Translations under genes and position numbers: made by a program
The notes under the pieces: generated by a model
What the model was told of the DNA's origin: nothing
The model's database searches: none
The model's input: only the letters and a program-made list of their open reading frames with translations
DNA from: a phage
Direction: 5' to 3' (one strand)
Sequence record: OR846051.1
DNA length: 1,327 bases
Shown here: piece by piece, positions 431-1,327 of the stretch
Layout: every line of letters begins with the position of its first letter
Position numbering within the stretch: the first letter of the stretch is position 1

Positions 431-1327
431 ATGAAAAAAGTCATTTTATCTTAGGCTCTGGGCACGTTTGGTTTGGGGATGGCCGAATTTGGCATTATGG
501 GCGTGCTCACGGAGCTGGCGCATAACGTAGGAATTTCGATTCCTGCTGCCGGGCATATGATCTCGTATTATGCGCTGGGGGTGGTGGTCGGTGCGCCAAT
601 AATCGCACTCTTTTCCAGCCGCTACTCACTCAAACATATCTTGTTGTTTCTGGTGGCGTTGTGCGTCATTGGCAACGCCATGTTCACGCTCTCTTCGTCG
701 TACCTGATGCTTGCCATTGGTCGCCTGGTTTCCGGCTTTCCGCATGGCGCATTTTTTGGCGTCGGAGCGATCGTGTTATCAAAAATTATCAAACCCGGAA
801 AAGTCACCGCCGCCGTGGCGGGGATGGTTTCCGGGATGACAGTCGCCAATTTGCTGGGCATTCCGCTGGGAACGTATTTAAGTCAGGAATTTAGCTGGCG
901 TTACACCTTTTTATTGATCGCTGTTTTTAATATTGCGGTGATGGCATCGGTCTATTTTTGGGTGCCGGATATTCGCGACGAGGCGAAAGGAAAGCTGCGC
1001 GAACAATTTCACTTTTTGCGCAGCCCGGCCCCGTGGTTAATTTTCGCCGCCACCATGTTTGGCAACGCAGGTGTGTTTGCCTGGTTCAGCTACGTAAAGC
1101 CATACATGATGTTTATTTCCGGTTTTTCGGAAACGGCGATGACCTTTATTATGATGTTAGTTGGGCTAGGGATGGTGCTGGGAAATATGCTAAGTGGCAG
1201 GATTTCAGGACGTTATTCACCACTGCGCATTGCAGCAGTGACTGACTTTATAATTGTACTGGCACTGCTGATGCTCTTTTTCTGCGGCGGCATGAAAACA
1301 ACGTCGCTTATTTTTGCTTTTATTTGT
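431..1327 (+). CDS. araJ: MFS (major facilitator superfamily) transporter AraJ, arabinose-regulon putative sugar/drug efflux protein; first 299 codons, continues past the window end; interrupted as read by an in-frame TAG at codon 8 (possible pseudogene or amber allele)
   Basis: Seen in sequence: ATG at 431, and the frame is open to 1327 except TAG at 452-454. Translation: MKKVILS*ALGTFGLGMAEFGIMGVLTELAHNVGISIPAAGHMISYYALGVVVGAPIIALFSSRYSLKHILLFLVALCVIGNAMFTLSSSYLMLAIGRLVSGFPHGAFFGVGAIVLSKIIKPGKVTAAVAGMVSGMTVANLLGIPLGTYLSQEFSWRYTFLLIAVFNIAVMASVYFWVPDIRDEAKGKLREQFHFLRSPAPWLIFAATMFGNAGVFAWFSYVKPYMMFISGFSETAMTFIMMLVGLGMVLGNMLSGRISGRYSPLRIAAVTDFIIVLALLMLFFCGGMKTTSLIFAFIC... It is strongly hydrophobic with periodic helix-length segments and a GRLxSG-type MFS loop motif. 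Established knowledge/recall: matches E. coli AraJ and its position downstream of sbcC. The supplied ORF track omits it only because it is not closed within the window. Confidence 0.85.
452..454 (+). other. araJ: In-frame amber (TAG) stop codon at araJ codon 8, at a position expected to encode Leu
   Basis: Seen in sequence: codons from 431 read atg aaa aaa gtc att tta tct TAG gct ctg ggc. Recall (unverified): the AraJ N-terminus is MKKVILSLALG, so this codon should be Leu (TTG or TTA). Downstream the frame stays open and protein-like for 291 codons. Confidence 0.85.

Follow-up and report, generated by a model that had tools for sequence, protein, structure and literature searches.

The araJ gene carried by the 1,327-base window analysed here (the whole stretch of DNA, counted from its first letter) is interrupted at its eighth codon by an in-frame TAG, and the most probable reading, which I put at roughly 0.6, is that this represents a recent amber allele on an O157:H7-type chromosome, private to one strain or to a small sublineage. 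The window consists of the 3' end of sbcC, a 125-bp spacer and the first 299 codons of araJ, and its features, all on the plus strand, are these:

3 to 305, plus strand: 3' end of sbcC (last 100 codons and the TAA stop), the upstream neighbour of araJ; from translation, NCBIfam, and the EDL933 and Sakai annotation
306 to 430, plus strand: sbcC-araJ intergenic or leader region, including TTG 347; from the EDL933 and Sakai annotation and the phases of variable sites
431 to 451, plus strand: araJ start codon and codons 1-7 (MKKVILS); from translation and from position 1 of NF007498 falling on residue 1
452 to 454, plus strand: premature amber TAG, araJ codon 8; all related sequences examined have T at base 453 (TTG, Leu), against A in the window
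455 to 1327, plus strand: the other 291 codons of araJ, undegraded and without a difference from the O157:H7 reference; the gene continues beyond the window end
479 to 481, plus strand: codon 17, the first ATG to follow the stop in frame and a candidate reinitiation start, 24 nt downstream of the TAG; a restart here would drop residues 1-16

Identity of the locus and of the altered codon

Translated from the ATG at 431, araJ reads MKKVILS*ALGTFGLGMAEF... and then encounters no further stop through 291 codons to base 1327. An earlier sequence-only reading of this DNA had placed an amber at codon 8 of araJ ahead of an otherwise intact frame, and both parts of that description are borne out by the translation. 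So long a frame, 291 codons, greatly exceeds what chance would leave open, and it belongs to the real araJ gene. With Leu8 restored in the query, the NCBIfam equivalog model for AraJ (NF007498) scores 591.1 bits against a curated cut-off of 499 bits and aligns residues 1-299 to profile positions 1-299 of 390, which is end to end over the part of the protein that is present, so the name given to the gene in that first reading stands. Pfam MFS_1 spans AraJ residues 8-296. Upstream, the sbcC fragment matches the NCBIfam SbcC equivalog NF007600 at profile positions 948-1047 of 1047, and EDL933 has sbcC, araJ and then, on the opposite strand, mak, the position between sbcC and mak being the one that araJ occupies in both EDL933 and Sakai. 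The gene is b0396 in K-12, ECs_0446 in Sakai and EDL933_RS02295 in EDL933. By score, by end-to-end alignment and by chromosomal position the sequence thus belongs to AraJ, and only the uninterrupted reading frame expected of a full member is missing, broken by the in-frame TAG at codon 8. As written, the gene therefore classes, on its sequence, as a nonsense allele or pseudogene of araJ.

Of the 5426 complete E. coli genomes searched by megablast with the whole window, all but one (5425) contain the locus, and the best matches, each identical at 1326 of 1327 bases, were all of O157:H7 type (EDL933, Sakai, TW14359, EC4115 and others). When the window is compared base by base over its 1327 positions with EDL933 (CP008957.1), the sole difference is at position 453, where the window has A and EDL933 has T; the corresponding base is CP008957.1:474443 in EDL933 and NC_002695.2:474444 in Sakai. 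Because EDL933 carries T at this position and differs nowhere else, the ancestral codon 8 is TTG (Leu), and a single T-to-A transversion is enough to produce TAG, which agrees with the single-step route proposed earlier. The stop accordingly lies in frame with the authentic start, and the sense codon of the relatives, TTG, is one substitution away from it, as one would see in a nonsense allele. It had also been suggested that a reference reading Leu at codon 8 would overturn the amber. The reference does read TTG, and this gives the ancestral state, but it is no proof of an error in the window sequence.

Set against araJ of O157:H7, an AraC-activated gene of the arabinose regulon that encodes an MFS transporter of the DHA1 type, the window shows the same locus and the same gene order, whereas its codon 8 is TAG instead of TTG, and the annotated product of 394 amino acids cannot be made by normal decoding.

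The start codon of araJ

The argument above depends on where araJ begins, and two annotations disagree: PGAP on EDL933 starts the gene at ATG 431, whereas the legacy Sakai entry (NP_308473.4, 422 aa) starts it at TTG 347. The two starts share a frame, and the TAG interrupts araJ under either annotation. Several comparative observations agree that ATG 431 is the true start, rather than TTG 347 or any codon downstream of 454. The last of these had been named as a circumstance that would remove the amber from the gene, and it does not apply, the family model for AraJ beginning at ATG 431 itself. AraJ is homologous from residue 5 onward to SotB (6KKI), a sugar efflux transporter of solved structure, and from residue 8 onward to MFS_1. 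Among the 63 loci matched by a pattern spanning the site, every substitution in the first 25 codons is synonymous, the other changes there being one-base indels in 5 of the 63, located in the A7 run and in other short runs. Likewise, codons 1-16 show only synonymous variation across 69 distinct related segments. In the same 69 segments, variable sites between 431 and 1327 are distributed 44/29/129 over the three codon phases, a clear third-position bias, whereas those between 347 and 430 are distributed 8/7/5, with no such bias. Because this upstream stretch does not vary as coding sequence does, the N-terminal extension from TTG 347 is probably a mis-annotation that is not translated.

Over the 20 nt upstream of ATG 431, pairing with the anti-Shine-Dalgarno (anti-SD) sequence amounts to -5.5 kcal/mol. 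No sigma-70 consensus promoter and no terminator was found in 306-430, and matches to the AraC half-site and to the CRP consensus in this leader occur at chance level only. As side observations, a good SD-like GAGGGG (-7.4 kcal/mol) precedes TTG 347, and an automatic gene caller applied to ENA and Logan contigs also starts araJ at that TTG, 28 codons upstream of the ATG.

Rarity of the TAG allele and its possible origins

How widespread is a stop at codon 8? A 61-mer with the TAG at its centre is matched exactly by none of the 5408 complete E. coli genomes in which the region is present (those with the 61-mer at one or more mismatches to the TAG version, out of 5426 searched), and a TAG-bearing 35-mer has no hit in metagenome contigs or in GTDB species representatives. 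A control pattern with N at the variable base recovered 55 metagenome contigs and 8 genomes, and all 63 of these read TTG. Base 453 is T in each of the 69 distinct related segments, as it is in all of the ENA and Logan contigs sharing the exact 100-aa SbcC fragment, among the matches listed (10); those ten are without exception of non-O157 type and differ from the window at 10-32 positions. A search of the literature, including the SNP supplements of O157 phylogeny papers, returned no nonsense or amber allele of araJ in O157.

Three explanations for the amber were offered at the outset, namely a recent loss of function, a base-call error and an engineered mutation. The list is correct; from the window by itself no choice among the three can be made. 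The first is favoured here as a real mutation, given that the remainder of the window is unchanged relative to EDL933 and that codon 8 is TTG throughout the relatives, a pattern to be set against the fact that TAG8 appears in no other public sequence examined.

That TAG8 is missing from the 5408 complete genomes, the metagenome contigs and the GTDB representatives is also what an artefact would predict, whether the A at 453 arose as a base-call, consensus or assembly error or through some later alteration, in which case the organism would have TTG and an intact araJ. It fits this explanation, too, that position 453 is the lone difference from a clonal O157:H7 reference in 1327 bases and that a partial AraJ running from codon 15, 17 or 23 to the window end is not on record as a contig-edge gene call. 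Substitution errors, however, are rare in modern consensus sequences, and the errors that public assemblies do show at this locus are changes in homopolymer length rather than substitutions. Moreover, a shortened O157 AraJ has been deposited in four independent NCBI submissions, which indicates that real lesions circulate in this short interval. I therefore regard an artefact as possible, though doubtful.

These shortened records deserve a closer look. By exact protein look-up, an O157-type AraJ beginning at Met17 (378 aa) is on record in 22 contigs and one beginning at Met23 (372 aa) in 48. Both forms favour a heritable lesion. The four submissions mentioned above concern the Met17 form (QHG45709.1, KZP45894.1, NYV38839.1 and EIT7617456.1); the longest contig carrying it is a 5.48-Mb chromosome (5,476,008 bp). 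In both the Met17 and the Met23 records the protein is identical downstream of the lesion, and the starts are those that an annotator would pick if codon 8 were a stop. Calls of this kind presuppose that the gene is damaged somewhere before codon 17. It should be kept in mind that these records may carry some other lesion, such as TTA6 changed to TAA or TGA, TTG15 changed to TAG, or a small indel. The entries are named simply 'MFS transporter AraJ', and annotation pipelines appear to mask the early lesion by moving to a downstream start without a pseudogene flag.

Slippage in the A7 run of codons 2-3 (window 434-440) was considered as a source of the 378-aa calls and rejected. Of 5411 complete genomes, 1 has a six-A version of the run (A6), that of the non-O157 strain HSP425, and the version is also present at 3 of the 63 metagenome and GTDB loci; an A8 version was found in no complete genome and was not seen at the metagenome or GTDB loci. 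A6 is thus both rare and non-O157, and where it does occur PGAP gets round the frameshift by starting at the ATT of codon 5, so that the product has 390 aa and not 378. Because of this difference in length, the 378-aa form points instead to a lesion in about codons 6-16, a range with which TAG8 fits. The A6 allele, found in E. coli HSP425 and in some long-read and metagenome assemblies, resembles the window allele in disrupting the first codons of araJ; it differs in being a homopolymer indel on non-O157 backgrounds, where the window has a substitution. The A6 shortening is probably, for the most part, long-read homopolymer error.

A deliberately engineered amber, whether intended as a suppressible allele, as a marker or as a site for a non-canonical amino acid, is very unlikely. 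A very early TAG followed by an untouched frame is what such a design might look like, but the window contains no scar, cassette, tag or synonymous recoding, and position 8, inside helix 1, is no obvious design choice. In addition, araJ lacks a selectable phenotype, a pathogen of the O157:H7 type would be an unlikely chassis, and no suppressor tRNA is encoded within the window, in which no tRNA gene of any kind was found.

Predicted consequences for AraJ

If the recent amber allele is real, induction by arabinose and AraC would be followed by initiation at ATG 431 and by RF1-mediated release of the seven-residue peptide MKKVILS at the UAG, and this peptide is the only product that is certainly made. 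Full-length AraJ would arise only through low basal readthrough, unless the strain has an amber suppressor tRNA, and a fraction of the ribosomes may start again at AUG17, 24 nt further on. In-frame restart codons following the stop are TTG15, ATG17, ATG23 and GTG25; the SD-like pairing in front of them is weak, from -3.3 to -5.5 kcal/mol. A protein initiated at Met17 would lack the Lys-Lys of the N-terminus, and its transmembrane (TM) helix 1 (about residues 4-26) would be reduced to the second half. The hydropathy peak of this helix covers AraJ residues 4-22, in a segment that aligns with helix 1 of SotB. Since codons 1-16 are conserved and include the first half of helix 1, a product restarted at Met17 would probably be mis-inserted or inactive. 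Classical early ambers, for example those in lacI, give rise to translational restarts at close in-frame start codons. The UAG of araJ is likewise closely trailed by in-frame start codons, but unlike the lacI case, in which a dispensable soluble N-terminus is lost, a restart in araJ would remove half a TM helix from a polytopic membrane protein.

Could araJ still work in spite of the stop, through efficient UAG readthrough or an active Met17 restart, which would make the allele a hypomorph or a regulated form instead of a null? Base 455 is G, as noted in the first reading, and the resulting UAG-G context, with a purine at +4, might assist readthrough, just as the in-frame ATG 24 nt downstream might assist a restart. 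In-frame stops in bacterial genes are, furthermore, sometimes read through (PMC7918605). Against this, a stop at codon 8 occurs in 0 of 5408 genomes and in 0 of 69 segments, where a programmed recoding site would be conserved among orthologues, so that it is not maintained by selection. Since no relative has a stop at this codon, conserved or programmed readthrough is on this comparison excluded as a feature of the family; no Rfam element overlaps the TAG site. The restart fares no better, with Met17 placed midway along helix 1, the first half of which is conserved and has its homologue in helix 1 of SotB, and with the SD-like pairing before ATG 479 at -4.3 kcal/mol, weaker than that of the native start. 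A functioning araJ of this kind is very unlikely.

For the cell, the amber allele is expected to have little consequence. No polar effect on another gene is expected because mak lies on the opposite strand, and since no arabinose phenotype is known for an araJ deletion, the allele should be phenotypically silent. [quoted passage not shown] In a delta-araJ strain the shut-off of the ara system is not delayed (PMC3935871), and the function of AraJ is stated as still unknown (PMC8363721). The gene is strongly induced by arabinose in EHEC (PMC11127945).

A more far-reaching version of these events would have TAG8 not only real but marking an O157:H7 sublineage, represented by the approximately 22-48 contigs with Met17 or Met23 starts, in which loss of arabinose efflux could have been favoured; alternatively, a shortened AraJ made by reinitiation could keep some altered function. 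I consider the chance of this to be slim indeed. If it were true, loss of the putative efflux pump might raise intracellular arabinose and so feed the arabinose-dependent regulation of virulence and fitness in EHEC (PMC11127945).

In kind, the feature is already known and routine, being either an ordinary amber substitution in the well-known araJ or a sequencing error. If real, it would add one more strain-private pseudogene to a clonal pathogen, a gene loss without known phenotype, and NC_002695.2:474444 in Sakai could be used as a SNP by which to recognise a sublineage; if an artefact, its value would lie only in flagging the quality of the source sequence. The practical warning concerns annotation, where an early stop leads pipelines silently to call a shortened AraJ from Met17.

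Two minor observations concern other parts of the window. An antisense ORF of 36 aa (446-556, minus strand) was dismissed, as it is annotated in neither EDL933 nor Sakai; the SNP at 453 would change its penultimate-but-one residue from Gln to Leu. At the opposite end, the starts of many ENA and Logan contigs (123 index blocks) fall no more than 2 nt from window position 1, and the exact 100-aa C-terminal fragment of SbcC is on record as a contig-edge gene. This clustering of contig starts may reflect a hot spot for assembly breaks shortly before the (CTGGCG)3 run at 39-56, or else simply selection by the exact-product look-up itself.
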